DNA of 64,000 nucleotides, taken from assembly GCA_963827275.1 (NCBI GenBank), contig CAWHAA010000005.1, positions 288,001-352,000 on the forward strand. Direction: 5' to 3'. Position 1 is the first letter of the stretch, and the number at the start of each line of letters is the position of its first letter. The notes beneath the pieces were generated by a model, which saw only the letters and a list, made by a program, of their open reading frames with translations, made no database searches and had not been told where the DNA came from. The DNA comes from an uncultured Spirochaetota bacterium (GTDB lineage: Bacteria; Spirochaetota; UBA4802; UBA5550). Below are positions 979 to 44,631 of the stretch, one piece after another. The position numbers and the translations under genes were made by a program.

Positions 979-2091
979 ATAGCTCTCTCACTATCCCCAC
1001 ACAGCTCCCCTACCCTCATCTCAACCAACCGATCCATCCCAAACAACCTCAACCCCTTCAAGGCACACCACTCATCCAGATACAGTTGAGAATACTCTGG
1101 CCTGATATACCCATACCCAGCCAGAAAGGAATGCTTCAATACACGTTGGAACCCTTCTGCCGTCTGACTATGGACTCCCTTACAGCTCCATCTCTCTCTA
1201 CTCCAGACATTCCTCTTCAAATCCTTTGCCCGTTTCGAGTGGTTTACTGACCGATGATTGTCATTATATCGCTTCAACCACGGATAACCGGCATCAGAAA
1301 ATATCGGAGCATGCTCAGGCAAGAAATCCAGTAAGGGCATAATCGTTCTTTGTCTTTGATCAGGAATAGAATCAAATATGACTGGCCCTTTCTTTATCCC
1401 AATCGTGGAAACCAATGTCCCGATCTGGTACTTACCCTTCTCCAGAGCCACAGAATCGGACAGGTAGATGCTGGAGGTCTGGCCGTTGTGCTTGTACCGT
1501 GCTCTGTAGCCATTAGAGCCTTTTCTAGCTGAAAACAGGGCAACTGTATCCATTGATACTACCGGTTTGCTCTGGATTAATCCTGAGAGGTCTGAAGCGG
1601 TATCCTTGGGGAATCTAAAGCCTTCTGGGAACTCCTTCTGGATCTCCTCTGTCATGATCTGTTTAATAACGGGGATAAACTCCCTCAGGAATAACTGTAA
1701 CCGCCTCTTGAGTAAGGTGGCGGTGTTGTTGGAACATTGGAGTCTTCTTTGTATACTTGAGGCTGTCAGGACTTGAGGATGGATGTTGAGAGCTTCTGTT
1801 AGGATATATGAGAATGTCCAGAGCGGAAGTCTGAGATTGTGCAATGGGGTTTGGGAAGTACGTGATCCTTGGTAATAGCACTGGGGACAACGGATTGCAT
1901 TTTCTCTGGTCGCTATTTCATTAGTAAGTCTTGTTTGGCAATGGGGACAGTACTTGGGATAGAGTGGAGTTAAGGATCTGTTTGGTTAGTTGGGTGTAAT
2001 ATTGGATGTTGATCTGGGGGAATCTTGTTGAGAATTGGGTCTTGGCATTTTGGTGAAAATGTATAGGTTGTGGGGAGTGTGAAGGAGAGAT
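979..2091. repeat. left terminal direct repeat (1113 bp) with imperfect terminal inverted repeats
   Basis: Matches 28127-29238 by spot checks and identical ORF-track translations, apart from an extra G near 1962. Ends ATAGCTCTCTCACTATCCCCACA vs revcomp ATCTCTCCTTCACACTCCCCACA match at 17/23. Confidence 0.93.
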
Positions 2092-2187
2092 ATAGGTCTT
2101 ACCCTTGAAATATGGTAAAACTGACAGACCCTGATTCATCCCCATTTTTTTTAATGATTGCATATAATATCCCCTCCAAGATGCATC

Positions 2188-2217
2188 ATGGTATACAAAT
2201 TAATCGATAGCGGTCAA
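2188..2217 (-). promoter_or_regulatory. candidate sigma70 promoter for the transposase (TTGACC-N18-TACCAT)
   Basis: Visual match only, just upstream of the GGAGG RBS. Confidence 0.35.
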
Positions 2218-2286
2218 TTAATTATTTTATCTTATTGTCAAACGGGAAGAAACACTGATGGTAAGGGATTTATTAATTTTTAGTTT

Positions 2287-3240
2287 TTATCTATTTTTAA
2301 TAAAGTAGCGAAATTGCGTGGGCTCAAGAACATCATCCTCTGGATTCCACGGATCTTGATGATATCGTATATTCCCACCTGAGGCAATCCAGTCTTTTCC
2401 ATCCCTTTGCAATATTATTCCAGATATAACTATCAAGACTGAATATCCAGTATTATTGCGGGCATGTTGTAATTCACCATTTGTTAATAACACACTATCA
2501 CCATTGCCGGTGGTTCCTTTCACCTCAATAAATCTTTTCTCATTATTTTTTATAGCTAATAAATCATAAGACTGAGTTGATGACATATCTTCTATTACCC
2601 AACCTAATTCTTTGTATTTTGAAATTGCCACTTGCATTGCTCTTAATTCAACAGCCTTACGCTGAGGCTGGGACAGGCCAAATCCTTGCCCATCAGAAAA
2701 ACCCACTTGATTGACATTAGTTTTTGTAGACATAGGAAAACCCAGTTTTTCATGTAGTGCTTTCTCGTTTAATGGAAGGATAGAGAGTTGCGCCTTCAAT
2801 CCATCTGGGGTTAGTGAGCATTTTTTTATTTCTTGAACCGAAGGCGGATTATCAAGGATCTGAAAATTCTCAATGGAAGCAACGTATGACATTACATCTG
2901 TTTGAGTTACTACAGGATTTGCAAATTCATATGCGCATGAACCGCATTTCCATTTAGGAGTTTTTTTTATTCTTTCTCGAATATCAGTAGAGTTGCAATC
3001 TTGATTCGGACACCGGCGATGAGTTTTAATATCTTGAGATTTATTAATATCTCCCACTTCGCCCAACCCGATTATTTTATCATCCTTGCGGACTACTACT
3101 ACATCTCCAGAACCAAGGCTTTTATGGTTAGGGACTAAGCTGTCATAATGATATTCTTCTCCGGTTTTGTCACTATAACTATCTATACCTTGAGATATTC
3201 GAGTCTTGTCAGATTTTTCGAGAATTAACCAACAGGCCAT
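2287..3240 (-). CDS. DUF3883 (PD-(D/E)xK) nuclease with zinc ribbon and putative PUA/SRA-like N-terminus
   Basis: C-terminal YDLLA..RFIEVKGTT..LTNGE; Cys pairs CPNQDC and CGSC. Confidence 0.7.
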   Translation of the reverse strand: MACWLILEKSDKTRISQGIDSYSDKTGEEYHYDSLVPNHKSLGSGDVVVVRKDDKIIGLGEVGDINKSQDIKTHRRCPNQDCNSTDIRERIKKTPKWKCGSCAYEFANPVVTQTDVMSYVASIENFQILDNPPSVQEIKKCSLTPDGLKAQLSILPLNEKALHEKLGFPMSTKTNVNQVGFSDGQGFGLSQPQRKAVELRAMQVAISKYKELGWVIEDMSSTQSYDLLAIKNNEKRFIEVKGTTGNGDSVLLTNGELQHARNNTGYSVLIVISGIILQRDGKDWIASGGNIRYHQDPWNPEDDVLEPTQFRYFIKNR

Positions 3241-3262
3241 AGGTCCCTCGATAAAAAACGTC

Positions 3263-3664
3263 TTATATCTTAGCCTTAATTTTTGAAAAAATGGTCATCA
3301 TTTTTTTTTTGCCAATTTCACATTCCCAAATTCTATAAACAACCCAGCCATCTCTTTTAAGCTTCCTATTAACGGTTCTGTCTCTATTTTTGTTAGCGGA
3401 TATCTTTCTTTCCCAAAATTCCATGTTTGATTCTGGTATCTTTGCACATTTGTGCCCATGCCAGAAACATCCGTCGACAAACAGAGCAATCTTCTTTTGG
3501 GGGAATACGAAATCGGGCTTGCCAAATATTTTAAATTTTCTTCGCCAACCGATAACTTTTTCTTGTCGTAGATGAAGTATTATTTTTAGTTCGGTACTTT
3601 TATTTCCACTTCCCCGGATACGTGACATGTTCCAAGAGCGGTGTTCGCTGGAAAGACGATCCAT
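3263..3664 (-). CDS. vsr: very short patch repair endonuclease
   Basis: [40 protein letters not shown]; start overlaps the upstream stop. Confidence 0.95.
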   Translation of the reverse strand: MDRLSSEHRSWNMSRIRGSGNKSTELKIILHLRQEKVIGWRRKFKIFGKPDFVFPQKKIALFVDGCFWHGHKCAKIPESNMEFWERKISANKNRDRTVNRKLKRDGWVVYRIWECEIGKKKMMTIFSKIKAKI

Positions 3665-4419
3665 CAGATGACCTTGGCACGTTTCCATCTCGCCATGGCC
3701 GGGTCGAGGTGGTCAGTAAAAAAATCCTCAAATGATAGAATGTTGGGTGCTGATGAATAAACGGTGTTGCCATTCATTATTTTTTCAGGAACAACCAGAT
3801 ATATCCGGTTATTAAGCATCTCTTTTGATTGCTTTTCTGATACTCCCTCGTCAATGGTTGCCAAAAATAGCCCCTTGCCTTTAACACCTTCTGTGGCAAT
3901 TTGACGCCACCTTTCCCTCAATGTTCTTTTTGCTGTGAAAATAATACAGTCCGGGGCATTTTTATTGTAATGGTCTTTCGATGGTAATAGAAAATCAGGT
4001 TTTCCGTTTATTATACACTGTTCCTCAAAAGGATAATCAAGATTACGGAAAAGTGTTCTGATTATTGTTTCGAATGTCTTTCCCGCTCTTGCTTTTCTAC
4101 TCTGAGACAGGGACATGAAAAATTCATTAAGAGCTGGGAAAATAGCTTTATCCTGTTTTTCATCAAGATAATTCTTGATGACTTTTTCTCCGATCTTTTT
4201 TTCATAATTCAAGTATATCTGGTAACACTCATCACCCATATCCTGAACAATTTTGCTAAACTTTTCCTTCAGATCTTTTTTTGAATACCCTTTGTTGAGT
4301 ATTGCATCCATGCCACGTTTTGCAACAGTTTCAAGATTAGGCACTAACTTTTGGAAATCATCAAACATTTTCATACTATCAACCAGCCTTGTTCCTGATT
4401 CTTTTATCATCTCCAACAA
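3664..4419 (-). CDS. type II restriction endonuclease, EcoRII-C/SsoII-like
   Basis: [28 protein letters not shown] motifs. Confidence 0.85.
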
Positions 4420-5389
4420 GTTTTTGCTGTTTTAATGAATCCAGTACAGATTCCGCTATCTTTTCTACAACTTTGACAACAACAGCATTCCCAAATTGTC
4501 TATAGGCTTGGGTATCTGATACTGGAATTTTAAATGTATCAGGAAACCCCATAAGACGAGCGCATTCTCTCGGGGTGAGACGTCTGGGATTTTTCCCTTT
4601 TTGTCTGATTAGAATTTCTGATCCATCTTTGTAATAACGAGCACTCAATGTTCTTGTAACATCATTAGGGCCGACCAAACCGAATCCAAAACCATTACCC
4701 TTTTCGGCATGTTTTTTTGCATAATCTTGAAGATATTTCCAAAGGTGATCTGAAAGCGTATATTTCTTATCGACCTTATGTTCAAGTATTGAGCCGAGCT
4801 TCGGCCCGGATGGATCCATTTCCGGGAATTCATATAAGAGGGGGCGGTCGAATCCGACAATGAATATTCGTTCTCTATGCTGTGGAGTAACGCTTTTCGC
4901 ATCGATTACTTTATAGTACACCGTATAGCCAAGCTTTTCTGTAAGCGTTTTGTAAATGATATTAAATGTCCGCCCCTTATCATGAGTGATAAGATTCTTA
5001 ACATTTTCAAGTACAAAAGCACTTGGGCGGAGGTCTTTTATTATCCGGGCTAATTCAAAAAAAAGATTACCTTGTTTCTCATCGTCGAATCCGTGCTTAC
5101 GCCCAAGGCTGTTTTTCTTCGAAACACCAGCTATGCTGAATGGTTGACATGGGAATCCGGCGCATAAAATATCAAAAGATGGAATGTCGGAACTTTTAAC
5201 GGAATGTATATCCCCGACAGGTTTTTCGACAAAATTTGATTCGTATGTAATTTGCGAGTACTTGTCCCAATCACAGGAAAATACACATTCGCCACCAAAT
5301 TTCTCAAATGCAAGTCGGAACCCACCTATCCCGCAAAAAAGATCTATAAAGCGGAATGTATCACGAATGTGTTTTGTCGCTCTTCTCAT
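4379..5389 (-). CDS. dcm: DNA (cytosine-5) methyltransferase, Dcm/M.EcoRII-like
   Basis: [58 protein letters not shown]. Confidence 0.93.
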
Positions 5390-6558: not shown

Positions 6559-9356
6559 ATGGATATTAGTATTCAAGAAATTGAAATTGCTTATAGAAAA
6601 TTAAAATCATACTTTTATTACGACAATACTTCACATTATTTTCGCAAGGCATTGGCGGAATTTGAGTCAAAAGATGGTTTTGAAAATAGATTATCTAACT
6701 TATGTGAATTTTTGAATAATTATAATAGTGTTGATTCACAAAACTATTTTTCTGAAATCGTTGAAAGAATCTCCTTTATTAGTCTACCAAAACGAATTAG
6801 TTATAAAAATCATGATTATGTTATTTCTAATCAAGTTGAAGATTCAAAATACACTATTGATAAATTGACATTCTTAATTGATGCACCAATTGAAGTGCAT
6901 ATTATATCTGTATTGTGGATTTTAAAGATTGGCGTGCAAGTTGCCTACTAATTATAAAACATATTTATACGGCAATAGAATTCAATTTAATTATAATTCC
7001 AATGAAGTTAAATCAGGATTACAATTATTTAAACCATATTATAAACAATATCAAAATTGGCGAAATAATGGACTTAGGAGTATTGAAAATTGTTTAGATA
7101 ATAATATAAATGTCGCCATGTTATTGCTGGACGTTAAAAATTATTACCACTCAGTAAAATTTTCATTTAATAAATTTAATGATTCCATTAATAATCTTAA
7201 TATTGAGAAAAGCTTTTTGCTACTTAATAAGTTATTATATGAAATTCATTATTCTTATACAAAAATAATCAACATACATACTGACGAAAAACACAATGAT
7301 GGCACCACTATATTACCAATAGGTTTATTATCATCAGGTATTTTGGCGGATTGGTATCTAAATGATTTTGATGAAAAAACGATAGCTCAAATCAAACCAT
7401 TATATTACGGTAGATATGTTGACGATGTTTTAATTGTCATAGAAAGCCCGAATATTGATAAGCAAAAAGATGATTTACTCGATGAGTTTCTTACAGATTA
7501 TTTTATTATAAAAAATGAAATCTTAACAAAGAAAGGAAATAAAGTTTATAAGATAAATAACTACCGAGGATTAGAAATACAAAAAGATAAAATAAAACTA
7601 TATCTATTAGATGCTAATGCTTCGAAAGCTGGTTTGAAAAAATTTGAAAACACCATCCGTAGGAATAGTAGTGAATTCCGTTTTTTACCTGATGAAGATG
7701 AAGTAAATGCAAATTTTGATGAAGAAGCTTATTCGATTATTTATTCTGATTCAATAAATAAACTACGAAGTGTCGAGGGTTTGGTGCACGATAAATATAA
7801 TATTTTTAGTAATAAATAACAATAGGAGGGCTTTTGGTTTTTTTATAAAAGAAGTTAATTCTCAAATAGATAAAATAAAAATTGCAAGTCCCGAGCTTGA
7901 GAAACGTACGATTTACTTTTTAAAAGATTATTTAACTATATCAGCATCAATTCCAATCTCACTTAATTTGTCATTTGCCGACGATCTCTTGTTTGATTGC
8001 TCAGTTTGGATTCATTATTGGAATATTCAAAATCTATAAGAATTTCCAATTTATTTAGACATAATTATGTTTACTATCCTCTATTTAACTTCACAGACAT
8101 GAGTTACAATTATTCAATAAATCTTTTAGATAAAGATATCAATAATTATCCATTTGTTAGATCATCGAATTATGGCATAACACATAATCATATAAAATAT
8201 ACACCTCGATTTGTTCATCTATATGAAGTTCAATTATATTTGATGTATTATAATTTGATTATCACTAAAATCAATAATGATAAAAATGATTTCAGTGAAT
8301 ATATCAATGAAAAACATTTATCAGAAATAACTATTGAATTATATTCAAATATTAACTACGGACGAGGAGATACTGATGAAAGAGAATATACATGATGGGT
8401 TTGGTTTTAAACAGAAAATCTTGAAACAGATTCCAGAGAGACAGGATGATGAAGAAATCGGTATTCGGATTGTTGAGCATTATTTTGAATTTGAAGAAAA
8501 AGAAAAGAAGTCAATAAGGGTGGGAATAGCAAACCTTAAAATAAATCATGATGATAGTTTAGATAATATTAAAAATCCTAATTTATCTTTTAGCAAGAAA
8601 CAAAAACTATGGAAACTATTGAATTTAATGGAAAGAGAGGATTGTGATCTATTTGTATTACCGGAACTATCTATTCCACATGAATGGCTTCAAAATTTAG
8701 CTAAATTTTCAGACGAAAATCAAAAAGCTATTATTTTTGGATTAGAACATTTCAAAGACAAATATAATCGAGTTTATAATTTAATTGTAACAATATTGCC
8801 ATTCAAAATATTTGGTTATAAAGCATCATATATTAGATATCGTTTAAAAAACCATTACTCGCCAGAAGAAAAAAGACAGTTAATAAACTTAGGGTATAGA
8901 ATACCAATACCATTGGTATATTGTTATGATTTATTTTCATGGAATGGGGTGTCTTTTTCGTGCTACAATTGTTTTGAATTCACAGATATAAATCATAGGA
9001 GTTTGTTTAAATCTGACGTGGATTTTATCGTTGCTGTAGAATATAATAAAGATATAAATTATTTTTCAAATATTGTTGAATCGATTGCAAGAGATATTCA
9101 TTGTTATGTTATTCAAGTCAATAATTCCTGTTGGGGTGATTCGCGCATAACTCAACCATCACCAACTGAAATAAAAGATATAATAAAAATAAAAGGTGGC
9201 GAAAATAGTGCTATTTTAATAGGCGTTATTGATATAGATAAACTTAGAAATTTTCAAATACAAGATTATGAAACACAAAGAAATGATGAAAACTTCAAAC
9301 CCACACCACCAGATTTTGATCAAGATAATGTGAGAAGACGCATGGGCCTTCTGTGA
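6559..9356 (+). pseudogene. reverse transcriptase-nitrilase fusion (UG1/DRT1-like), split over five overlapping ORFs
   Basis: RT motifs LDVKNYYHS, LPIGLLSSGILADWYL, YGRYVDD; nitrilase triad PELSIP, LKNHYSPEE, YNCFEF. Confidence 0.85.
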
Positions 9357-9755
9357 TAAAGTTATAATTGTGATGGATTTTAGTGATATTCCACTAAAAT
9401 AAGTTATAATTTTCTTTATAATACAGAATGAATATCTTTTGTAAAATAACAAACAAATTTATAACTAATCCATTGTAATAGATTTATCACTTATCAAAAA
9501 TATTTTTTAAAAAATAATCAATTGGCTTGTTATATAATTTCGCAAATCGCATCAACTCCACCACATCAACCCGCCGCTCACCAGATTCACATTTTGAAAT
9601 ATACGATTGGGATTGTTTCAGCTTTTTGGCAATGGCCAACTGAGTAAAGCCGGACTCTTCACGGGCTTTTCTGAGGTTCTGATCCCACCCCTTAAATTTG
9701 TACCACGAGATAGTTTAGTTTTAACCGATAAATAATCAAGACTAATGAGGTTAAA

Positions 9756-10028
9756 ATGAAAAAACGATTCTCAGAAGAGCAGATTGTCAGGATCCTCGGT
9801 GAGCATAAGGCGGGAAAAAAGGTAAAGGATATCGCCCGAGAACACGGCATTAGTGAGAACTCCTTTTATATCTGGAAGCGCAAATATGGAGATATGAGCT
9901 CTCAGGAAATTGTTCGATTGCGACTACTTGAAGATGAAAATACACGATTAAAGAAACTGGTTGCCGATTTATCCCTGGATAACATGGCACAGAAGGAGAT
10001 CATAAAAAAGTTCTGCGACCCGGAGTGA
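9756..10028 (+). CDS. IS3 transposase OrfA
   Basis: MKKRFSEEQIVRIL, LEDENTRLKKLVADL; AAAAAAG slippery-type motif at 10004-10010. Confidence 0.9.
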   Translation: MKKRFSEEQIVRILGEHKAGKKVKDIAREHGISENSFYIWKRKYGDMSSQEIVRLRLLEDENTRLKKLVADLSLDNMAQKEIIKKFCDPE

Positions 10029-10768
10029 AGAGAGAGGCAGTAAGCTATCTGATGAGTAGCTTCGGGTTTTCGATACGACGATCATGCAAGGTTTCCTGTA
10101 TGGCTCGTTCTACATTCTCATATAGTCCGCAGCCAAATGATGACGCACGAATCATTGGAGAGATAGATTCGATCCTTTCAAAAAATTCAAAATATGGCTG
10201 CGGAATGATACAGCTCAAGCTGAGGCAAAAAGGGATACTGATTAATCATAAGCGTACAGAAAGGATATATAAAGAGCATGGGCTGCAATTACGAGCGCGG
10301 AAACGTCGGAAAAAGATAGCTTCATTAGAACGATCACCCGTTGAATTGCCGAATGAACCTGGCGTCATATGGGCTTTAGATTTCATTCATGACTCGGTGG
10401 GCTTTAAAAAGAATCTCAAAATACTGACAGCGATTGACCCTGTAACGAATCATTCGCCACTTATTCATACTGGATTTTCAATAACGGGTAAGGATGTTTC
10501 TGAACTACTTGAAAGAGCATGTGAATCCTTTGGGTATCCAGAATTTATACAATGTGACAATGGTCCTGAATTTAGAAGCCAGGAACTCGACCGTTGGTGC
10601 TATGAAAAGGGGATTAAAATAATTTTCACAAGGCCCGGCAAGCCATCAGATAATTGCCACATAGAAAGTTTTAATGGAACATTTCGGAATGAATGTCTCA
10701 GTGCTCATTATTTTAAAAAACTGAGTACAGCCAGAGAGATTATTCATGAATGGTGGGAGAGAATATAA
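10025..10768 (+). CDS. IS3 transposase OrfB (DDE); C-terminus frameshifted near 10757
   Basis: WALDF, CDNGPEF, IESFNGTFRNECL; YNEERPQKRLKGMTP continues in another frame. Confidence 0.88.
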   Translation: MKREAVSYLMSSFGFSIRRSCKVSCMARSTFSYSPQPNDDARIIGEIDSILSKNSKYGCGMIQLKLRQKGILINHKRTERIYKEHGLQLRARKRRKKIASLERSPVELPNEPGVIWALDFIHDSVGFKKNLKILTAIDPVTNHSPLIHTGFSITGKDVSELLERACESFGYPEFIQCDNGPEFRSQELDRWCYEKGIKIIFTRPGKPSDNCHIESFNGTFRNECLSAHYFKKLSTAREIIHEWWERI

Positions 10769-11133
10769 CGAGGAAAGACCTCAAAAGAGATTAAAAGGGA
10801 TGACGCCAAAACAATATAATGATATGTTAGTAATCGAGAAAACTAAACTTGAAGCTGGTCGAATTGTGGGTGCAGGATCAGTTCTTCAGAAAGTTCTGAT
10901 ATTCGGTTGTATATATTGAATTTTTCACTTGCCATAGTATAAATCCTATATTAGAATATCCCAAATTGGAATATTTCAATCCACGCAAAAATCGAATAAA
11001 TTATAACAGTTATTATTTGCCGATCCCCTCTCCGGGGGATGACGGATGTGTATTTGTATAATATTTTAATGAAGTTATATAGGAGACGGCCATGAGAGAC
11101 AACTTAAGGGAGTTTATTGGAAGGATTGCCAAA

Positions 11134-12373: not shown

Positions 12374-13415
12374 TCATTCCACAAGAAAGTTTTTCAATCC
12401 CGCCAAATAAGCCGAAGTTACAAGCACGGATGTATGCCCAAGTATTACTGAGAGCTGGTGGATATCTTTTGTTCTGTTGTAGAAATCGATTGCAAATCGA
12501 TGCCGAATTCAATGAGGCGAGTACTTCGTCTCTAATTTACCTCCCATCTCATCCTGAATCCTCCAGAGCCACATCGAGAAAGCACTGCCCGAGTAATCCT
12601 TGAATGGTTCCCGCCCTACAAGATTATATGATTTAAGGATAGCAAGAGTATCCTCATCAAAACGTCCATTGATCTCTTTCCCTTTTGACATTGCCCTGAA
12701 GTTGCCATCACGGTCTATTTTTAGAGAATTCAGGGAACCAACACGTAATCCGTATTTACGCAATATTCTCAAAGCACAAAGGGCTTTGATGTTTCCGTTA
12801 AGCTTCTTGAGTTGGCCACGGCCTGATACTTGTTGGGCTTCCTCTATCTGTTGTAGGGCATAGTTTTCAATACAGATCGAGTTCTTCATTCGAAGGGATT
12901 TGTTCAGCCTCTTTGATTGCGATTTTCTTTTTTGGGAGACCCTTGGCTCTTCTGAAAGGGTTCTTGAAAATAATCTCCCAACGTTCCAAGTCAGAAAAGA
13001 ATGAACTCGGAGAAGCAATTCGCTGGCGTTTGGTATTGCTTGAAAGCCTTTTATTGGAATTGAGATAAGCTATGTACTTATCGACAATGAGAGCATCAAC
13101 ATCTATGAGGGATGTGCCATTGAGCCATGTGAGGAAATAATTCAGATTTGCCTTGAAGCTCCGTATGGTGTGCTTGGATTGGAAACCTGATAACCATTGG
13201 TTCACAAGATCATCAACACCCTTTTTATCCAGCTTGGCTTTTTTAACTTCTCTACCGAACTCATTTTTTAGAGAGTCAATATAATATGCCTTGGCTATCT
13301 GCTGGATCTGCTTATCAGATAAGTCTGCTAGCTCAGGAGAGTCTAATATCTTCTGTATGGAGTCATTAATTCTTGTCGCTATCTCTTTCTTGGTATCATC
13401 ATTAATGGGGGTCAT
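12374..13415 (-). pseudogene. tyrosine recombinase/integrase with a frameshift near 12870 and an in-frame TGA at 12509-12511
   Basis: YGLRVGSL (R), SPH*IRHRFA (HxxR), LGHTSVLVTSAY (H, Y). Confidence 0.85.
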
Positions 13416-13754: not shown

Positions 13755-15497
13755 ATGAATATTGCATATTTAGAGAATCTAGATTTGTTACATGGGGATT
13801 TGTATTATGATGATATCAAATTGGATTTAAAAAGAAACACAATTCGTACATTAAAAAAAGAAGCAAAGTTGGAAACCAAACAAGCAAATGATTTGTATAA
13901 TGCATTGCCAATACAAAAATGGGCAAATAATAAATTATGGGTAAATTATGGAGAAATATACGATAAAGTTGAAGCAGTTATTATTGATAGTAAATTTAAA
14001 TTAAAGTATTTCAAAATAAAGGATCACGAACCACCGACTCTTTCATTGGTTATTGCAGAATATGAGTTCGCTACTTATGTGAACAGTTGTCCTGAAAAAT
14101 ATCCTGATTTTGAATTCCCTTATTTTTCATTAGATGATGATTATAATTATATTAATATTTTCTTAATAATTATATCAACTATTATTGCTCAGCATGTATA
14201 TGCTAAATGGGAATATATTAATAAGAATGCCTGTAATATAGAACTAGAAAACATGTTTATTATTCCTGCATGGGTTAGTTTATTCGCGCAGTTATTCTCG
14301 GGCGTGAGTGGAAAGAAATTCTCTCAATATTTTGAATTAAACAAGTGTGCTATTGATATAAAGGGAGGAATATTTTATTGTGATATCGAATTATACGATC
14401 TTACTGCATCCAGAGAAGCAAAAGGAAATCCAAAATCTGATTTTCGTATATTTGTTGATGAAAGTGACTTAATAAATTATAACTTAATTAAAAAATATAC
14501 TGAATCAACAATAAATGAAAATGAAGCAGATCTTAAAAATAAACAACAATTTGTTAAATTATTAGATAAAGTATTTTCTCCCAAAGGATTATTATGCTTA
14601 TTAAAAATTTTCTTATTTATTGAAAAAAGTGGTCGTCCTAATATAAAAGAGGCAAGCCTCGAGGATATATTTGTTGATATTAAAAAATCTACAATCAAGG
14701 AATATATAGAAATTATTACAGCATTAAGTATTATTAAAATAATGAAAGTGAATAAAAGCAGGGCAATTGGTTTTTTAGAATCTATTGAACTTAAACCGAC
14801 AAGAAGTTTACGTACCTATAGCATTAAAATTCGTTTATCTCGTCTCTATAAAAGATGCGTGGCAGGATATAACTGTTATATCCTGCCAGATGCCATATGC
14901 AATGAAATATTAAAAAATAATAAATTAAAATTCTTTTTACTAATATTCTTTTTGGAACAATGGGTTAAAACAAAACAACCTGAAATTGATTATAAAATTG
15001 ATGAATTAATTAAAATTGCTAAAATTGAAGATTATTCAGCAGGTGAAAGTGGTGGTATTTTTAATGTAAGACAATATGAGTTGCTTCTTGATACCCTTAG
15101 TTACATGAAGAGAAAAGGATTTATTGGAGATTTGCGTGTCTACTTGAATAATAAAGATAATATAATTTCCCTAAGAGATAAACCAAAAAGAAATGCGTGG
15201 AAGGATTATTCAATAACAATTACTTCTCCTGTATGGTTTGTGAAATATGCTATTGGGAATCATCAAGGAGAATATATAATTTTAAAAAAAGCACCTCCAA
15301 TAAAAACAATCACTGCGGCTAATATTAAAAAGTTTCGTGAAGTTGTAGAATGGACTAGTGTAAAACTTGCAAATAAATTAGAAGTTTCGCCTCGTTGGTT
15401 ACGTTTTCTCGAGACAGGACAAAAAAAGATCAGTAAACAAATTGAAGATAAATTACACAAAATACTTCAAGATATAATTAAAGAAAAAGGTTTATAA
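13755..15497 (+). CDS. large hypothetical protein with C-terminal XRE HTH
   Basis: 580 aa; IKKFREVVEWTSVKLANKLEVSPRWLRFLETGQKKIS. Confidence 0.7.
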   Translation: MNIAYLENLDLLHGDLYYDDIKLDLKRNTIRTLKKEAKLETKQANDLYNALPIQKWANNKLWVNYGEIYDKVEAVIIDSKFKLKYFKIKDHEPPTLSLVIAEYEFATYVNSCPEKYPDFEFPYFSLDDDYNYINIFLIIISTIIAQHVYAKWEYINKNACNIELENMFIIPAWVSLFAQLFSGVSGKKFSQYFELNKCAIDIKGGIFYCDIELYDLTASREAKGNPKSDFRIFVDESDLINYNLIKKYTESTINENEADLKNKQQFVKLLDKVFSPKGLLCLLKIFLFIEKSGRPNIKEASLEDIFVDIKKSTIKEYIEIITALSIIKIMKVNKSRAIGFLESIELKPTRSLRTYSIKIRLSRLYKRCVAGYNCYILPDAICNEILKNNKLKFFLLIFFLEQWVKTKQPEIDYKIDELIKIAKIEDYSAGESGGIFNVRQYELLLDTLSYMKRKGFIGDLRVYLNNKDNIISLRDKPKRNAWKDYSITITSPVWFVKYAIGNHQGEYIILKKAPPIKTITAANIKKFREVVEWTSVKLANKLEVSPRWLRFLETGQKKISKQIEDKLHKILQDIIKEKGL

Positions 15498-15805
15498 TAA
15501 ATCTTTTTCAATTCAATAGACTAAACAAACCAAACCCTCATTTATCATATCCAAATTGTCTTTAGGAACTAAAGACGACCATTCTTGCATTTCAAAGATT
15601 ACCATGATCTATTATGTACTCGCCAATAATGGTCTATTGAAGTATTATGTTTATGACTGAATAAATAACGAGGAGGTGATTAATGTAATTTAAGAATCTG
15701 GAAGATAATAAATGAAGTTGGTGTGTAAAAGATTGTTATGAAACAATAATATCTTTAGAATATTGGTGAGTATATCTCAATTTAAAAATTAATAGGAGAA
15801 AAAAG

Positions 15806-16261
15806 ATGAATATGTATGATTTTATTTTAACTAATGCTCGTTTAGAAGAAAAAATAAACCAAACAAGGCTTAAACTTGAGGAAAGTGCGTCCTCATTGGG
15901 TTCAATGGTTGAATTGTGCAAACCTGTGGTTGATCTTTTCCACAAGAATTTGCCTGACGAAATTAATCCATTAAAAAATACAGATTCAAGAATACCATTT
16001 TCCAAAGCTTTCATAATGGCGCGAATCATTCATTTAATAGGAACAGTAGAATTAAATGATGCTCTTATTGAAAGCATGGAGAATTGTGATGAAACAGAAC
16101 TGTATTATTTTCATTTCATGTGTGAAACTGAAGAAAGAAAAAAAATAATAATAAAGTCACATTTAGATTTTTTCCAAAAACATACGAATAATAATAACGA
16201 AAAAACTAAAAAAACTAAAAAATCAACAGGAGAAAATTATGGAAAAGCAAATATTAATTAA
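15806..16261 (+). CDS. hypothetical protein
   Basis: 151-aa ORF with AGGAG RBS. Confidence 0.6.
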   Translation: MNMYDFILTNARLEEKINQTRLKLEESASSLGSMVELCKPVVDLFHKNLPDEINPLKNTDSRIPFSKAFIMARIIHLIGTVELNDALIESMENCDETELYYFHFMCETEERKKIIIKSHLDFFQKHTNNNNEKTKKTKKSTGENYGKANIN

Positions 16262-16592
16262 TTATGAAATATTAGGCAAATATCAGGATGAATTAGGGAA
16301 CTTCGAGCCTGATGAATTGGAAAAATTGCTGAATAATTATAAAGCACTTTCAGAGTTTCAGGATGAGCTTGGAATGTATGAAACTGAAGAACTAAAAGAA
16401 GTGGTGAATAATTATATGACTCTTGAGAAACTTCAGGCTGATTTGGGATTGTGGGAGGCAGATGAACTAAAAGAAATGATTGGAGACCTTGATACTCTTG
16501 GCCAACTTCAGGATGATCTGGGAATTTGCGATACGGATGATCTTAAAAAGCATATCTCATTATTAACAGAGCTGAGGGAAATTGAAGCCTGA
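16239..16592 (+). CDS. acidic protein of four 25-aa repeats
   Basis: Repeat unit approximately NYxxLxxxQDELGxxExDELKxxxx; AGGAG RBS. Confidence 0.7.
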   Translation: MEKQILINYEILGKYQDELGNFEPDELEKLLNNYKALSEFQDELGMYETEELKEVVNNYMTLEKLQADLGLWEADELKEMIGDLDTLGQLQDDLGICDTDDLKKHISLLTELREIEA

Positions 16593-16660
16593 TATAATAA
16601 TGAGGATCACAGTACCATAAGGAGATAAACATAATTTAAACAAGGAGAAATGTATCGTTA

Positions 16661-16725
16661 AAGCAACATGGGTATCACCTGTAGTTGATCATGTAAACGA
16701 AATGCGGACGCTCCTACAATGGGAG
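16661..16725 (+). ncRNA. candidate structured RNA/leader, copy A
   Basis: Imperfect direct repeat of 17445-17515 with conserved hairpins. Confidence 0.45.
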
Positions 16726-16806
16726 GCTCGCGCTTTGTACAAAATTTAAAAGGTTTCTCTTTGAGGTGGGGGAAAGGTAAAATTTATAATTTCAAGGAGC
16801 TAGGAA

Positions 16807-17151
16807 ATGGACTACGGAACAGAGATTTACAAAGGCACAAAAATTATATGGGATGAAGATCATGATAAGAGAATTTGTATATTTATAGATGATCTTAAAG
16901 AAAAGTATCCAGATGTATCTTTATATTCTTGTTATGAACATAAAGGTTCAATTAAATTAATATTTAATAATTTTATACCATTGGAATATAGAGAAGGTAA
17001 ATTTATTGAAGTAATAGACGGAAAAACTTATATCTCATTAAGTGAAGAATACTTTGAAGACGAATGCTGCGAAGATGACTTTGAAGAGGAATTGTGTGAA
17101 GTAGATGCTCGAGACGAATGGTGTATAGAAGAATCTAAAATAAATAAATAA
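16807..17151 (+). CDS. acidic hypothetical protein
   Basis: 114-aa ORF with AAGGAG RBS; D/E-rich C-terminus. Confidence 0.6.
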   Translation: MDYGTEIYKGTKIIWDEDHDKRICIFIDDLKEKYPDVSLYSCYEHKGSIKLIFNNFIPLEYREGKFIEVIDGKTYISLSEEYFEDECCEDDFEEELCEVDARDEWCIEESKINK

Positions 17152-17348
17152 TAATATTAGTTTATAATAGCAAAGGGAGTTGTAGCGGTTTTCAGAAAAG
17201 ATTCTGGTTAATGAGAGCAATAATTTATGAATCAATCAGAGCTGTCCTCTGTAAAAGTCATGAGAAGATTGAAGGCCATGTAAACTAATAGTGGTAAGTG
17301 TTAAACGACGAATTATAGGTGGGAAGAAATGAATCGAATATAAAAAAC

Positions 17349-17392
17349 GGCTTCAAATAAATGATAATGTGATAATACATTTATTTGAAGCC
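17349..17392. repeat. perfect 15-bp inverted repeat with 14-bp spacer
   Basis: GGCTTCAAATAAATG / CATTTATTTGAAGCC. Confidence 0.85.
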
Positions 17393-17444
17393 AATAATTT
17401 CCATTTTAGTCTTATCAAGGAGAAAATTATGAAATAAAGGGCCT

Positions 17445-17515
17445 AAGCAACACAGGCATCACCTGTTGTTGAACATTTAGTTTCGTACTAAATACGGACA
17501 CTCCTGCAAGGGGAG
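17445..17515 (+). ncRNA. candidate structured RNA/leader, copy B
   Basis: Hairpins CAACACAGG/CCTGTTGTTG, ATTTAGT/ACTAAAT and CTCCT-GCAAG-GGGAG. Confidence 0.45.
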
Positions 17516-17768
17516 ATAAAGAAAATAAAAAGCAGGAGCGTCCTATGGATGTTATATTTCAGAGAATCATATTCTCTCCTCTCGGCATATTAATCTACAT
17601 CATCAACCGGATGGCGTTAGTGTCATCCTCTTCAATAGTATGGCTGGTTGTTGGCTCTGGCAACCATAACTTCCACTTCTATATGCCTCAAGCTCCTCCT
17701 TTCTATGAGATTATCAATCATAGCTTAGAAGATTTTACTAATAAAAAAAAGGGAATAGGAGTAGTATT

Positions 17769-19847
17769 GTGAAGCATATAGATATTAAACAACTCCAGAA
17801 ACATCTTGTAATAAAAGGGTTGGCTGGAACAAGAAAAACAGCATTATTAATCGCCATAGCTATACAGGCTGTATCTAAGGGAATGAAGGTTCTTTATCTC
17901 ACTTTTAATAAAAAAATACGTTTTGAGGTGATAGAAAGATCAAAATTAAGCAAAACCAAAGTACATACGTTCCACAGTTTTGCCTATAAGGAAATTATTC
18001 AAACGGACTTTCTAAATGATATTTTCAAAGACTTTTCGGTAGATGAACTAACTCAATATTTCGATGAGGATTATAAATATTTCTCATCAAAATCCAGTAA
18101 ACCTAAAGATTTATCCCAAAAGACATTGAGTGAACTTATTAGATGGTGGTGTGACTATTGTGAAAATAGTACTCAAACCAAGTATGATTTAATTATAGTA
18201 GATGAGTTTCAAGATTTGAATCCCAGTATGTTTAGGATGTTGAAAAAACTCTATATGATTAATAAGAAAAATGATGTTAAGATAATAGTAGCCGGAGATC
18301 CTTACCAAACGATATATCACTATCTGAATGGTTCAGATTCATCTGAGAATTACTTCAATACTTTTGGTAAATATTTTGGTGAATTTGAGACAATACATTT
18401 AGATCAATGTTATAGATGTTCTCCTGCAATACAGAGATTTGTTAATGGGTTCTACAGAAAACAATATATAAATTACAGGCAATTTGATTTAAATGGATAT
18501 CAAACCTCTGATTATTCGGAAGATGTATTTATTCATTTAATTCAGCACAGAAGATTAGTTAATGAAAAAGTATCTGAGATATGTAATCAATATCAGGGCA
18601 TAAAAATTAAAATTCTGGCACGTGTAAATAGAGAATTATCTCCATTTTCTGATTTAATTGCCAAGAATGATCTAATACAAACTTCTACTATTCACTCTGA
18701 AAAGGGCAATGAATGTGATGTTGTAATAATAGTTAATACCATATTTAATGATAAAATATCCTCTGAGGAAGACAAAAATCTGTGGAATGTAGCCATTACC
18801 AGAGGAAAGAAAACGGTGCATATTGTTTCCTCTTTTCCCAGCGAGAAGATATTGGATTTATTTGAAGCAGGAACTTATACTTTAATTTCCGAACAACATG
18901 ATCTATCTAATTCTACCATGGAAGACATTCCCCAAGAAACAATAAATTTAACTCCAGACAAGGTTAGAGAGTCATTGATTGATTCTGTGGAAGTCCAATT
19001 GGATTATGAGGATGCTCCATTTATTCCATATGAACAGCAGAATCTTAAAAAGAAATCTCGTTATATGACCAATACAAGGATCAAAGGTAAAAATATTGAT
19101 CTTGTACTTAATCAGGTCAAAGGAAAATTAAATTTCGAATATCTTGATTTAAACCAGTTGAAAAACCAAGGTTTTACTGATATACAAATTGTATCTTATA
19201 TTCTTGAGACCCAGAAAGAATACTTCAATTACAAGATTTCTGATGAAGAATTACTTTCACAAAAATTAAGAAGATTAGATCTGGCTAAATATTATGAGGT
19301 CTCTGGAACAGAAATATTGGATTATTTATCAATGGTATTAAAATTATCTAAATATTCTGACTCAGATAAAAAGACAAATTATTGTGGAGAGGAAGTTAAA
19401 ACAATTTATTTAAATTCTTCAAAGGCAAAAGAAAGAGGAATTAGGATTTATTTCCCCAAGTACAAAACTATTAATTCTTTAAATACTGATAAAAATATTA
19501 TTAAAGTTGAACTTTACAGAATTAGGAAATTGGGGATTAAAAAATTAGGATTATCAATTAAGAATGTTGGAGATTTATTAAGGTTTATAGATAATAATGA
19601 ATTAGAAAAACTTTATGATGAATGGATGAAATATGAATTTACATCTTTAACTGGTAAAGAAGTAAAGAATATTGAATTATTGAAGAAAAGAAGAAATATT
19701 TCAAGTTTGGAAGATTTAAGAGATTTAATTGATAGAGGTAATATTAAAATTAAAGATAAAAGAATTTATTATCATATTCTATTATCATTTATAAATGAAA
19801 GAGAAAGGAGGGAGATAGAGGAAATAGTTGGAAGTAAAAAAAGGTAA
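17769..19847 (+). CDS. UvrD/SF1 helicase with ~300-aa C-terminal extension (possibly Rep_trans-like)
   Basis: GLAGTRKT, TFN, TFHSF, DEFQD, GDPYQTIY, CYRCS, TIHSEKGNE, NVAITRGK. Confidence 0.85.
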   Translation: MKHIDIKQLQKHLVIKGLAGTRKTALLIAIAIQAVSKGMKVLYLTFNKKIRFEVIERSKLSKTKVHTFHSFAYKEIIQTDFLNDIFKDFSVDELTQYFDEDYKYFSSKSSKPKDLSQKTLSELIRWWCDYCENSTQTKYDLIIVDEFQDLNPSMFRMLKKLYMINKKNDVKIIVAGDPYQTIYHYLNGSDSSENYFNTFGKYFGEFETIHLDQCYRCSPAIQRFVNGFYRKQYINYRQFDLNGYQTSDYSEDVFIHLIQHRRLVNEKVSEICNQYQGIKIKILARVNRELSPFSDLIAKNDLIQTSTIHSEKGNECDVVIIVNTIFNDKISSEEDKNLWNVAITRGKKTVHIVSSFPSEKILDLFEAGTYTLISEQHDLSNSTMEDIPQETINLTPDKVRESLIDSVEVQLDYEDAPFIPYEQQNLKKKSRYMTNTRIKGKNIDLVLNQVKGKLNFEYLDLNQLKNQGFTDIQIVSYILETQKEYFNYKISDEELLSQKLRRLDLAKYYEVSGTEILDYLSMVLKLSKYSDSDKKTNYCGEEVKTIYLNSSKAKERGIRIYFPKYKTINSLNTDKNIIKVELYRIRKLGIKKLGLSIKNVGDLLRFIDNNELEKLYDEWMKYEFTSLTGKEVKNIELLKKRRNISSLEDLRDLIDRGNIKIKDKRIYYHILLSFINERERREIEEIVGSKKR

Positions 19848-20581: not shown

Positions 20582-21035
20582 ATTCATTAACATGGGCCTT
20601 TACTTCTGAGGATGTAATTTCCTAAAAAGTTAAACTATCACGTGGCACAAATTTGGGGGTGGGATCACTTTAATAAACTTAATTGGTTCTCTATACATAT
20701 TCTGGATATTACAAATTTATTCATGCTTGATTGCGAACCAATTCATCATACAAGTCTATACACTAAATTTTCCCGTTGGTTATATTGTCATGTGCAGATA
20801 TTTCTTGACATTAGTCTTCTAATATTATGTATTATAAATAAGAAATTCCATCTGGGTGGGATGTGACTATTATAATTAACATATATCTATTATCTATGAA
20901 TGCATGAGAAGCTCTGATCTGGTTTTAATTCGAGTAGCACAAAGTATTTATTCCTTAGAAATGTATCTGCCTACACTCATATATTGGCATACATAAAAAG
21001 GCTGAACAATCACAATCAAAAGGAGACCAAATAAT

Positions 21036-21980: not shown

Positions 21981-22034
21981 AACCCCTCTCAAGTGAAGCC
22001 TCCTCCAGCAGAAAAAGCGCTGGACAGAGGCTTA
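21981..22034 (+). repeat. hairpin-forming repeat, copy 2 (partial)
   Basis: AAGCCTCCTCCAGCAGAAAAAGCGCTGGACAGAGGCTT. Confidence 0.75.
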
Positions 22035-22898: not shown

Positions 22899-22976
22899 CT
22901 GAAACAACTTACTGATTTTTATATTTTACTTTCTAGGAATCTGCCCACTCATCGGTGCCGGCCGAGGGGACACAAA

Positions 22977-23053
22977 GCATTTTATCAGCAATTACTTCCT
23001 CTTAAATTAAGCCCCCTCCGGCAGAAAAAGCGCTGAACAGAGGCTTAAAATTT
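22977..23053 (+). repeat. ~75-bp hairpin-forming repeat, copy 3
   Basis: See copy 1; overlaps the stop of the Lgt-like gene. Confidence 0.8.
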
Positions 23054-25724: not shown

Positions 25725-25820
25725 AAATAACCTCCATGATTAACTACTATAGGTGTATACGAATGAGAAGTCAAAATGACATAAAATATTTTTAAAAATT
25801 AAATTATTTTAAGAATAAAT

Positions 25821-26545: not shown

Positions 26546-26577
26546 AGGAATCTCCTTAAAATAATAGTCGTGAATAT

Positions 26578-27216
26578 TTATTGCTTAGCCCATCGATTCA
26601 CTTTTCTTTGGTTCTGATAAATACAGGAACCCCATGAAATATAACCGGACATCTTATTTAGCTTGTCGTGATTTGATCTGTATACCAGAAGCCAGTATTC
26701 CTCATCATCAACAGATGTTTCTCTATTCTTGCCTTGATTGAATTTTTTTCTGGCATTTGCAATAAGATGACCCCAGCCATAATTAGCTCTTCTTTCATTT
26801 TTATAACTCATTGGAATCCTTTTTGTTATATCCACCGCCTGTTCAATAGCCTTGAATTTCCATACCAAACAGGGGAAAATATCCCGAGAGAAATCATCGA
26901 GATTAACCTTCTCACAATTGGAATATTCACAAATACCCCAAAGATATACGGGGTCATAACGCTTATGTAATTTCATTATCTGGTAAGCAATTAATGCATC
27001 CCACTCGCCATTACTTTCGCCAGTATCTGGATGATCATTGAAACGATATCTTATCTTATTGATAGCCCGATTACAGCATTTAACCCACGTATACATTCCT
27101 ACAGGGTCAAAGGTTTCATTATGGCCGTAGTTATAATCTCTTTTCCTATTTCTAATTCGATCCAATAGATTCCGTATCCACCAAGGTGAGAACTCAGAGA
27201 CTTTCATTGTATTCAT
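26578..27216 (-). CDS. basic, Trp-rich hypothetical protein coupled to the transposase operon
   Basis: GGAGG RBS; ATGA overlap with the upstream ORF stop; 212 aa. Confidence 0.7.
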   Translation of the reverse strand: MNTMKVSEFSPWWIRNLLDRIRNRKRDYNYGHNETFDPVGMYTWVKCCNRAINKIRYRFNDHPDTGESNGEWDALIAYQIMKLHKRYDPVYLWGICEYSNCEKVNLDDFSRDIFPCLVWKFKAIEQAVDITKRIPMSYKNERRANYGWGHLIANARKKFNQGKNRETSVDDEEYWLLVYRSNHDKLNKMSGYISWGSCIYQNQRKVNRWAKQ

Positions 27217-27509
27217 TTCTTTAACCTCCGTAATGAGTATCCTTGCACCTTCCCACGTTGCTCGATGATTGTTGCACATAATTCAATTATTTCATGCTCA
27301 CTCAAATGACGGCATAGATACTTCAGGTCTTTATCTACGAGATAAAAGTTATCAAGAGTGAAGCGGTTAGCCTTTTTATGCGGATCTCGCAACTCCACTT
27401 CGCAATTCAATGGGGTTAATTCTCTACTTGTCAAAGCACAGCACCTCCCTTGTTGTTCTAATAATTGCCAGAAATGTTCAGCGGTGAATTTAAAGGCTTC
27501 ATCTGTCAT
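27213..27509 (-). CDS. small degenerate HNH-like protein
   Basis: LLEQQGRCCALTSREL...DNFYLV pattern; start overlaps the transposase 3' end. Confidence 0.6.
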   Translation of the reverse strand: MTDEAFKFTAEHFWQLLEQQGRCCALTSRELTPLNCEVELRDPHKKANRFTLDNFYLVDKDLKYLCRHLSEHEIIELCATIIEQRGKVQGYSLRRLKK

Positions 27510-29238
27510 ACCCTTTCTCCTTTATTATTTTTTTCCGTTTATCTTTTGACATACCATATTTTGGTTGTCTGGGTTTCTTGGGTGCTTCTACTTGTTTTAT
27601 AAACTTGGTGATATCTGATAGTTCAGATAGTTCGTTCTTGTCGTAGGTGTAGAGGATATCGGGCAAAATCGGAATAAGCCTTTTCAGTTGATAATTAACA
27701 TCCCCCTTACCTTTCTTATTAACTTCCACGACATCTGCAATACCAAGCATTGCCCATATACGAACCACTCGAAGTGCTTTCTTTTTATTTATAGTTCCAG
27801 CATTGCATACGGTATTTAACGAGCGATGTTCACGATCAGCCAGAAATGAAAATAATCTGTGGGCTAAAGAATTGTATTCAGACTCACTCTGTCTTCTTTC
27901 TCTATTTTCCTCATCCCAATAGAACAGGTAATCCTCAACCGCCTGTTTGAGGGGATAATATTCATTCCGGTCTAATATGAATTTTAATCTTTTGGGGATT
28001 TGTTTTCTGGTCTTACTGAAGATCCCATGAACACGATTATCAGGTGTTGGAAGGTTATAAAGACATTCATTGATTTTTGCTTTTAAAGACCATTTTTCAG
28101 TTTTATCTGGTGACTTGTCCGTGCATATAGCTCTCTCACTATCCCCACACAGCTCCCCTACCCTCATCTCAACCAACCGATCCATCCCAAACAACCTCAA
28201 CCCCTTCAAGGCACACCACTCATCCAGATACAGTTGAGAATACTCTGGCCTGATATACCCATACCCAGCCAGAAAGGAATGCTTCAATACACGTTGGAAC
28301 CCTTCTGCCGTCTGACTATGGACTCCCTTACAGCTCCATCTCTCTCTACTCCAGACATTCCTCTTCAAATCCTTTGCCCGTTTCGAGTGGTTTACTGACC
28401 GATGATTGTCATTATATCGCTTCAACCACGGATAACCGGCATCAGAAAATATCGGAGCATGCTCAGGCAAGAAATCCAGTAAGGGCATAATCGTTCTTTG
28501 TCTTTGATCAGGAATAGAATCAAATATGACTGGCCCTTTCTTTATCCCAATCGTGGAAACCAATGTCCCGATCTGGTACTTACCCTTCTCCAGAGCCACA
28601 GAATCGGACAGGTAGATGCTGGAGGTCTGGCCGTTGTGCTTGTACCGTGCTCTGTAGCCATTAGAGCCTTTTCTAGCTGAAAACAGGGCAACTGTATCCA
28701 TTGATACTACCGGTTTGCTCTGGATTAATCCTGAGAGGTCTGAAGCGGTATCCTTGGGGAATCTAAAGCCTTCTGGGAACTCCTTCTGGATCTCCTCTGT
28801 CATGATCTGTTTAATAACGGGGATAAACTCCCTCAGGAATAACTGTAACCGCCTCTTGAGTAAGGTGGCGGTGTTGTTGGAACATTGGAGTCTTCTTTGT
28901 ATACTTGAGGCTGTCAGGACTTGAGGATGGATGTTGAGAGCTTCTGTTAGGATATATGAGAATGTCCAGAGCGGAAGTCTGAGATTGTGCAATGGGGTTT
29001 GGGAAGTACGTGATCCTTGGTAATAGCACTGGGGACAACGGATTGCATTTTCTCTGGTCGCTATTTCATTAGTAAGTCTTGTTTGGCAATGGGGACAGTA
29101 CTTGGGATAAGTGGAGTTAAGGATCTGTTTGGTTAGTTGGGTGTAATATTGGATGTTGATCTGGGGGAATCTTGTTGAGAATTGGGTCTTGGCATTTTGG
29201 TGAAAATGTATAGGTTGTGGGGAGTGTGAAGGAGAGAT
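27499..29238 (-). CDS. IS1595-like DDE transposase, right copy: open frame with zinc ribbon, DDE core and ~208-aa C-terminal extension, but no native start
   Basis: Manual translation is open from 29238 (ISPSHSPQ...YCPHCQ...RCPQCY) into the 497-aa ORF; no ATG/GTG/TTG upstream of 28992 before a stop in antisense comM. Confidence 0.88.
   Translation of the reverse strand: MSPSHSPQPIHFHQNAKTQFSTRFPQINIQYYTQLTKQILNSTYPKYCPHCQTRLTNEIATRENAIRCPQCYYQGSRTSQTPLHNLRLPLWTFSYILTEALNIHPQVLTASSIQRRLQCSNNTATLLKRRLQLFLREFIPVIKQIMTEEIQKEFPEGFRFPKDTASDLSGLIQSKPVVSMDTVALFSARKGSNGYRARYKHNGQTSSIYLSDSVALEKGKYQIGTLVSTIGIKKGPVIFDSIPDQRQRTIMPLLDFLPEHAPIFSDAGYPWLKRYNDNHRSVNHSKRAKDLKRNVWSRERWSCKGVHSQTAEGFQRVLKHSFLAGYGYIRPEYSQLYLDEWCALKGLRLFGMDRLVEMRVGELCGDSERAICTDKSPDKTEKWSLKAKINECLYNLPTPDNRVHGIFSKTRKQIPKRLKFILDRNEYYPLKQAVEDYLFYWDEENRERRQSESEYNSLAHRLFSFLADREHRSLNTVCNAGTINKKKALRVVRIWAMLGIADVVEVNKKGKGDVNYQLKRLIPILPDILYTYDKNELSELSDITKFIKQVEAPKKPRQPKYGMSKDKRKKIIKEKGYDR
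28127..29238. repeat. right terminal direct repeat (1112 bp)
   Basis: Copy of 979-2091. Confidence 0.93.
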
Positions 29239-44629: not shown

Positions 44630-44631
44630 TC

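Follow-up and report, generated by a model that had tools for sequence, protein, structure and literature searches.

A spirochaete element inserted in comM whose ends lie inside its own transposase gene, and its proposed movement as a circle

The window analysed here, a stretch of 64,000 nucleotides from contig CAWHAA010000005.1 of an uncultured Spirochaetota bacterium, contains an element of ~28 kb that interrupts comM and is flanked by two long direct repeats. Each repeat holds the middle part of an IS1595-type transposase gene, with the beginning of this gene lying inside the left end of the element and its last part inside the right end. The feature is real, recurs throughout a family of related elements and, as far as we searched, is matched by no described class. 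We propose that it is a site-specific element that moves as a circle with a single repeat, in which the whole gene is expressed, and that inserts replicatively by cointegrate formation, a reading to which we assign a probability of roughly 0.7. The architecture itself is nearly certain, and its parts are located in the window as follows.

1..978, plus strand: 5' part of comM (YifB/Mg-chelatase family; Pfam Mg_chelatase, E 4e-72), with the true start before the window
971..978, plus strand: left copy of the target duplication GCCGGTGC, on the NPCxC codons of comM, in the same 8-nt register as in four other genomes
979..2091, minus strand: leader-side terminal unit, the transposase core between inverted repeats of ~23 bp (Pfam DDE_Tnp_IS1595), with a frameshift at ~1962 before the Zn ribbon
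2092..2177, minus strand: transposase leader of 24 codons with its ATG at 2163, recognised by homologue comparison, and GGAGGGG resembling a ribosome-binding site at 2177-2171
2217-2188, minus strand: promoter-like match from a promoter scan, at chance level
26578..27279, minus strand: partner gene 2, of 233 codons, with codon 23 as the start in homologues; the product is all-helical and Trp/Arg-rich, with no family match
27213..27509, minus strand: partner gene 1, 98 amino acids (aa), overlapping the transposase stop; degenerate HNH-fold family by family profile matches
27499..28126, minus strand: C-terminal extension of the transposase, 208 codons, lying beyond the unit, with a winged helix predicted at residues 451-527 (numbering of the 579-aa frame)
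28127..29238, minus strand: C-terminal-side unit, an open frame with Zn ribbon, D181, D266 and E312; no ATG/GTG/TTG before codon 83
29239..29246, plus strand: right copy of the target duplication (alignment)
29247..29717, plus strand: 3' part of comM (Pfam Mg_chelatase_C, E 4e-29)

Aligned with each other, the terminal units (1113 and 1112 bp) show 0 mismatches and a single indel, which is a base at ~1962 that only the left copy has. Each is bounded by imperfect inverted repeats, and the 8-bp duplication stands outside both. An earlier note, made from the letters of the window, had described these repeats, inverted repeats and duplication, and they are borne out by the alignment and by an empty site: a contig of 8,192 bp from run X1 is identical to window positions 1-978 and then continues directly at 29247, with one 8-mer. 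The comM halves rejoin in frame to 483 codons with one terminal stop. The GC content is 32% in the interior of the element and 56-59% outside, and the 4.13-Mb, 11-contig genome of the window (G000) holds these two copies of the unit, with no third copy of it or of its ends.

Neither unit is a self-contained insertion sequence (IS), as the earlier note had recognised, since both the start and the stop of the transposase gene lie outside the unit. In the right copy, an open frame of 579 codons extends from 29238 to a stop at 27499 and offers no ATG, GTG or TTG until codon 83, past the Zn ribbon. A start is present at the opposite end of the element, where the leader (2163-2092) reads in frame into the unit and has GGAGGGG 7 nt upstream, giving 24+579=603 codons; the promoter scan was at chance level, with 2 matches found versus 3.1 expected. 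That the leader and the extension are parts of one gene had been suggested before and is supported for both. The leader resembles the 24-residue leaders of P0002 and P0004, with 7 and 9 of 24 residues identical and Met at -24, P0002 (603 aa, 75%) and P0004 being full-length homologues known here as proteins only. The extension is conserved among the 95 transposase homologues found. In a tandem array of related elements in genome G122, the ratio of nonsynonymous to synonymous substitution rates (dN/dS) was 0.06 for the core, 0.11 for the extension and 0.06 and 0.15 for the partner genes, the latter two values coming from two and three sequences, at a dS of 1.2-1.6. The C-terminal extension and the partner genes are thus under purifying selection. 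Their expression must follow from this, but a start is missing from the copy to which they are attached, and the selection requires a state in which they are provided with one. Over its first 150 nt, the unit is conserved also as DNA (dS 0.26 versus 1.27).

The transposase domain scores 32.7 bits against a Pfam cut-off of 27, and Pfam gives IS1595 only in the terminal units, with no IS6-family domain; the acidic triad D181, D266 and E312 is invariant in 17 aligned sequences. In the predicted structure (mean predicted local distance difference test, pLDDT, 75), residues 170-348 resemble integrase cores (Z 10.3, root-mean-square deviation 3.2, 126 residues aligned), and residues ~451-527 resemble winged helices, with a middling score for IscR (Z 7.9, deviation 2.9, 78 aligned). 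Two of 15 members of the partner 1 family match HNH models, and one member matches PHROG HNH families. Partner 2 is helical and rich in Trp and Arg, had no family match in profile scans and gave a poor structure model (pLDDT 57.9). Foldseek returned nothing at E<=0.001, the PDB sequence search gave one weak, unrelated match, and the Atlas searches gave leads under 0.9 only.

The same split and the same polarity recur in homologues across spirochaetes, and no homologue examined has the whole reading frame between its inverted repeats, an arrangement that by the earlier note would have spoken against its reading. Transposase matches were obtained in 97 of 156 species genomes of the Leptospirales (the order of G124, a Leptospira locus) and in 8 of 122 genomes of the window's class, G000 included. 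The scans yielded 50 genome loci and 44 metagenome loci, with no viral locus in IMG/VR, and all titled records with loci are from spirochaetes or unlabelled bacteria. The repeats are at least 99% identical in 26 of 29 two-ended elements (window included) and 100% identical in 21; left out of the 29 are two candidate pairs at 68-72%, which belong to different elements, and L005/L026 (90%, separate contigs). The identical pair OZ1/OZ2, located at an assembly origin and possibly an overlap artefact, was not relied on, and shared-flank lengths, which are inflated by repeat overlap, were not used for the duplication length. Neighbours within arrays are ~78-86% alike (dS ~1.2-1.3). Near-identical repeats together with such diverged siblings suggest that both copies derive from one template at each insertion.

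Throughout the family, the extension-bearing copy runs on for ~490-660 nt past the unit and has no upstream ATG, and the opposite, leader-side copy has an upstream ATG and stops shortly past the unit. Of the leader-side copies 18/19 had an in-frame upstream ATG, of the C-terminal ones 1/24 and of the solo copies 0/12, so that solo units, too, are devoid of a start of their own. A second set gave 14/16 leader-side versus 3/16 C-terminal copies, against a background of 0.24. As the copy classes were set by hand, partly from the flanks, with two boundaries ~60 nt off, and related elements are not independent, these ATG counts are descriptive. Complete elements carry ~17-75 kb of defence and other cargo. 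The genes widely common to 33 element pieces are the transposase and the two partners only; a tyrosine recombinase family occurs in 6, and no conserved resolvase or replicase was found among the 45 proteins of three complete array members. The plasmid collection gave one match, an integrated element, and the phage collection gave one, L051 (KF114878.1), which is linear, 47 kb long and has both ends inside the transposase gene, consistent with a circle as well as with an interior that was cut at the repeat. This record, titled as a complete Leptospira phage genome, corresponds to an element interior, and none of its 34 annotated features is a virion gene.

Insertion into comM, as described in the earlier note, is confirmed, but comM is only one among several fixed targets. 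Five genomes have the insertion in one and the same 8-nt register of comM: that of the window, G121 (a complete element with 1188-bp, 100% identical repeats), G118, G049 and L019/L102 (two identical loci, counted once). The other four cases have the orientation opposite to that of the window. In G118, a single-contig genome, comM contains a solo unit, the form that the earlier note had proposed to look for. Further targets, recognised by us from sequence and named on that assumption, are the 3' ends of MBOAT-like genes, uvrD, radC, comEC, tRNA-Tyr and the 3' ends of flgG-, fliG- and PP2C-like genes; several of them are presumably competence or repair genes (L054, L103, L108, L010, L018 and the window; comEC, radC and uvrD by motif). 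MBOAT 3' ends are targeted in 9 loci (L006, L017, L021, L027-L031 and L033), where the insertion lies exactly at the stop of genes ending YFQF/YFVF that we take to be MBOAT-like. The 8-bp duplication there contains the host stop codon, which also terminates the leader-side transposase copy, and the host gene points into the C-terminal copy. The uvrD site beside the VGDD motif is shared by two different orders.

The account in the earlier note contained neither tandem arrays and solo units nor the frameshift in the left copy. In G122, four complete, different elements stand in tandem and are followed by three solo units and a one-ended element, all separated by TGTTTTAG; similar arrays are present in G123 and G199. 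The array junctions have the form unit-8mer-unit, with different units. Solo units with 8-bp duplications occur at the same sites, also in multi-megabase contigs, and would be the reciprocal product of recombination between repeats. Three array members (CB1, CB3 and CB4; L006/L007, L012/L016 and L016/L008) hold an internal inverted copy, 96-100% identical, of their own leader-side 1.5-2.4 kb, leader and first ~320 nt of the unit, and thereby a third, inverted end. At the inner junctions (2092-2099 and 28119-28126 in the window, and those of relatives), the letters are mostly ..CAT/..TAT before the unit and ATAG/ATGC after it; by a rough count they extend the inverted repeat on the interior side only and might be a donor-end mark.

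We propose the following course of events, in agreement with the earlier note, which had read the element as a circle integrated as a cointegrate. In the circle, leader, unit and C-terminus would form one open reading frame of ~600 aa, followed by the two partner genes. The transposase would nick at the inverted repeats of the unit and join the ends to the target with an 8-bp stagger, and replication through the unit would yield the order host-8mer-unit-interior-unit-8mer-host and thereby split the gene, parting the partner genes from their promoter; this cointegrate geometry is taken from what is known of the IS6 family (PMC7986276, used here, like the other papers cited, in excerpt). Recombination between the identical repeats would release the circle and leave a solo unit, and new arrivals re-using the site would build up arrays. 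Because no resolvase is conserved, release would most simply depend on RecA; a role of the short leader+core protein in release is a bolder option. A one-unit circle with cointegrate insertion explains the selection, the identity of the repeats and the solo units together. The joined leader, unit and C-terminus do occur as one reading frame in four metagenome contigs (L055, L059, L078 and L083). L053 (NZ_CP043881.1, ~72.7-108.1 kb) is a 35.3-kb member with a CyRepA1-family replication protein, a tyrosine recombinase and a cargo of TIR, Abi and reverse transcriptase genes; with such a replication protein, some circles may replicate.

Target selection probably rests on protein, namely the transposase tail and the partner genes. 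Among cores, that of the window is nearest to those of units in comEC (81%) and in a response-regulator gene (67%). A quick tree rejected a clade of the five comM cores (approximately unbiased test, p-AU 7e-32). Both partners group with those of G121 and L059 (support 100/99 and 99/96; 2 of 25 rows left out of the partner-2 tree), and the tail is 61% identical to that of L059 versus 42-49% to those of the closest cores. These relationships suggest that tail and partners may form a swappable targeting module. An RNA guide was considered and rejected: matches of the elements to their own targets did not exceed chance, the longest exact ones being 9-11 nt, versus up to 14 nt for the targets of other elements (8 targets).

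Several observations weigh against the proposed reading. The 603-aa frame that the earlier note had obtained by joining both ends through the repeat stands with the sequence of the right copy, which it requires; the extra base frameshifts the left copy, and leader and left copy together encode 80 aa only. The remaining three of the 29 repeat pairs are 97.9, 94.2 and 92.1% identical, and 14 of 24 C-terminal copies have some ATG, GTG or TTG before the Zn ribbon, at varying positions and with none in the window. No recombinase, replicase or transfer gene is shared across the elements compared, and three C-terminal copies in G122 and G123 are without a full distal unit. The contigs with the joined gene are 3-4 kb long and could be made by an assembler passing a collapsed repeat. 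No circle or reaction was observed, and no sequencing reads cover the window's element: no run holds more than 0.09 of its words, and no RNA run is listed. As to targeting, the link between partners and target comes from two complete comM elements, and the partner-2 proteins of MBOAT elements were rejected as a clade (p-AU 7e-8), a result confounded by rows with unknown target.

These points have to be set against other explanations. The internal start codons just mentioned would suit a composite transposon in which movement depends on the outer ends, the C-terminal copy is expressed from a promoter within the unit and a non-standard start, and the repeats stay identical by gene conversion; the DNA-level conservation of the first 150 nt could hold such a promoter, and at the MBOAT sites the host gene is directed into the C-terminal copy. 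However, the internal starts share no position, the window has none before codon 83 and comM is antisense there, and it would remain unexplained why an external leader is conserved and homologous to full-length proteins, why repeats are 100% identical and why solo units exist, for which reasons we regard this as unlikely. Quite unlikely, too, is a restoration of the whole gene without a free circle made by RecA, either in a dimer sharing one unit after unequal sister-chromatid crossover or through an IS26-like conservative exchange by the leader+core protein. In most relatives the leader-side copy has an open frame that ends shortly past the unit, in many cases at a stop codon within the 8-bp duplication (+5), so a catalytic form of ~420 aa could be made in the integrated state, and RecA-independent reactions of this kind are described for IS26 (PMC7986276). 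Yet a shared-unit dimer was seen in no chromosome examined, array junctions being unit-8mer-unit, the leader-side copy of the window is frameshifted, and the stop position varies from -1 to ~+240 across targets.

An assembly artefact, in which a solo unit in comM and a separate one-unit plasmid were merged, would be in keeping with the lack of reads of the element, with the fragmentation of several cargo genes, which may be due to indel errors, and with the breaking of short-read assemblies at such repeats (L009, L011). We consider it very improbable, since multi-megabase contigs show the same two-unit structure, as does a record listed as complete (1208/1208 bp, 35,330 bp), and since within arrays the assemblies separate units that are only 80% alike; moreover, such an artefact would itself need the circle and the solo unit to exist. 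Directly repeated IS1595 copies are known from pseudo-compound transposons such as Tn7560 (PMC12561309), which could point to a one-off accident, namely an ordinary IS1595 element in a plasmid gene followed by a cointegrate with comM. This can practically be dismissed, as conservation of leader, extension and partners extends across the family, both start and stop are missing from the unit, and the conserved split in 28 other elements refutes a single event. Going beyond the one-unit circle with cointegrate insertion, we tentatively consider a more far-reaching version, which we hold to be rather less than an even bet: a new class of 'suicidal' DDE elements with ends resembling long terminal repeats (LTRs), in which the integration state would switch the transposase between two products. 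The short leader+core form, often stopped by a codon of the target duplication, would excise the circle; the full-length winged-helix form, with HNH-fold and helical-repeat partners, would insert it replicatively at a protein-selected site; and a swap of tail and partners would retarget it.

LTR retroelements likewise have identical terminal repeats that are made at insertion and diverge later, and leave solo repeats by recombination. Unlike for these, no RNA intermediate is implied here, and the sole reverse transcriptase is defence cargo. IS26 translocatable units (PMC7986276) share with our element the cargo between directly repeated units, the 8-bp duplication outside and the formation of arrays, and an IS26 circle with one unit can re-insert as a cointegrate, the counterpart of which is predicted here. 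In contrast, according to that excerpt, each IS26 is autonomous with its gene inside the inverted repeats, targeted integration adds no IS copy and arrays share one IS, whereas in our family the gene runs past both inverted repeats, junctions are unit-8mer-unit, host sites are fixed and two partner genes are conserved. Members of the IS1595 family (ISApl4/Tn7560, PMC12561309; MTnSag1 and tISCpe8, PMC5704250) have the DDE_Tnp_IS1595 domain, inverted repeats and an 8-bp duplication, and circular intermediates as well as directly repeated copies (Tn7560) are reported. In the portions of these papers at hand, however, they are depicted with the whole gene inside the inverted repeats and with many or AT-rich sites, ISApl4 reaching up to 39 copies; an enzyme of ~600 aa with a winged-helix tail, start-less units and specific sites distinguish the elements presented here.

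The 'suicidal' integrases of the archaeal Sulfolobus spindle-shaped viruses (SSV; PMC7253208) have their site within the recombinase gene, so that integration splits it, as we suppose for our element, and hybrids between the pieces accompany target switching. Those are tyrosine recombinases, unlike the DDE enzyme here with its target duplication and the duplication of a whole catalytic core of 370 codons. The IS2-like megacircle of Burkholderia thailandensis (PMC6350997) also derives from an IS-bounded island, the circle being one IS plus the interior, but involves complete IS2-like elements and re-insertion beside an existing IS, and the excerpt mentions no split gene or fixed target. Protein-guided insertion into comM and modular target selectors, which we presume here, are described for Tn6022 (TnsF) and Tsy, although without long terminal repeats in the part of the source used (PMC10293859). 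The comM site of our element lies ~46 codons past the DEF motif. No TnsB-, TnsC-, TniQ- or TnsF-type Pfam match was found in the 34 window proteins (the scan held no TnsF profile), and general profile scans of the 34 window and 45 array proteins gave no match to a relaxase or coupling protein. In the full-text literature searched, which included few subscription papers and had ISfinder and TnCentral outside its scope, we found no description of such an architecture, in line with the earlier note, to which it was unfamiliar among described IS1595 elements.

The interior of the window's element carries the following cargo.

2287..5389, minus strand: NOV_C-domain protein, Vsr, EcoRII-C-like restriction enzyme and C5 methyltransferase (profile matches)
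6559..9356, plus strand: UG5 defence gene (reverse transcriptase-nitrilase), present as four reading-frame pieces (profile matches)
9675..10884, plus strand: IS3-type insertion, with three further genome copies (profile and genome search)
12509..13415, minus strand: likely tyrosine recombinase in two overlapping frames (SAM-like domain match below the Pfam cut-off)
13755..19847, plus strand: 580-aa protein with a weak C-terminal helix-turn-helix match, small reading frames and a 692-aa UvrD-like helicase (profiles)

The tyrosine recombinase is a possible resolvase, one that is not conserved family-wide, and the region 13755-19847 a possible replication module. The four frames of the UG5 gene and the two of the recombinase reflect either decay or assembly indels. 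The comM element of G121 (L112+L113) carries a C5 methyltransferase, a restriction enzyme and Vsr that are 34-52% identical to those of the window. A repeat of ~130 bp resembling miniature inverted-repeat transposable elements or repetitive extragenic palindromic sequences, with many genome copies, occurs at 20508-20634, 21985-22034 and 22924-23053. There was no Rfam match in window positions 1-31000. Outside the element, the window contains a tandem repeat with a 9-nt period (34722-34808) and six dispersed copies of a 21-nt near-palindrome (44352-56127).

In current annotation the family is masked as 'hypothetical protein', 'transposase, partial' or even 'phage'. Several of its elements interrupt what we take to be competence or repair genes, namely comM, comEC, radC and uvrD. 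If the proposed reading is true, these are transposons with their ends inside their own transposase gene, and each insertion splits, and so switches off, the enzyme. Such splitting by insertion is known for archaeal tyrosine integrases, and in the literature searched we found none for DDE enzymes. The system offers a direct test of replicative transposition by an IS1595-type enzyme, and repeat divergence could date insertions in the manner of LTRs. Furthermore, it hints at a small, possibly new protein that selects targets for the site-specific insertion of large cargo.

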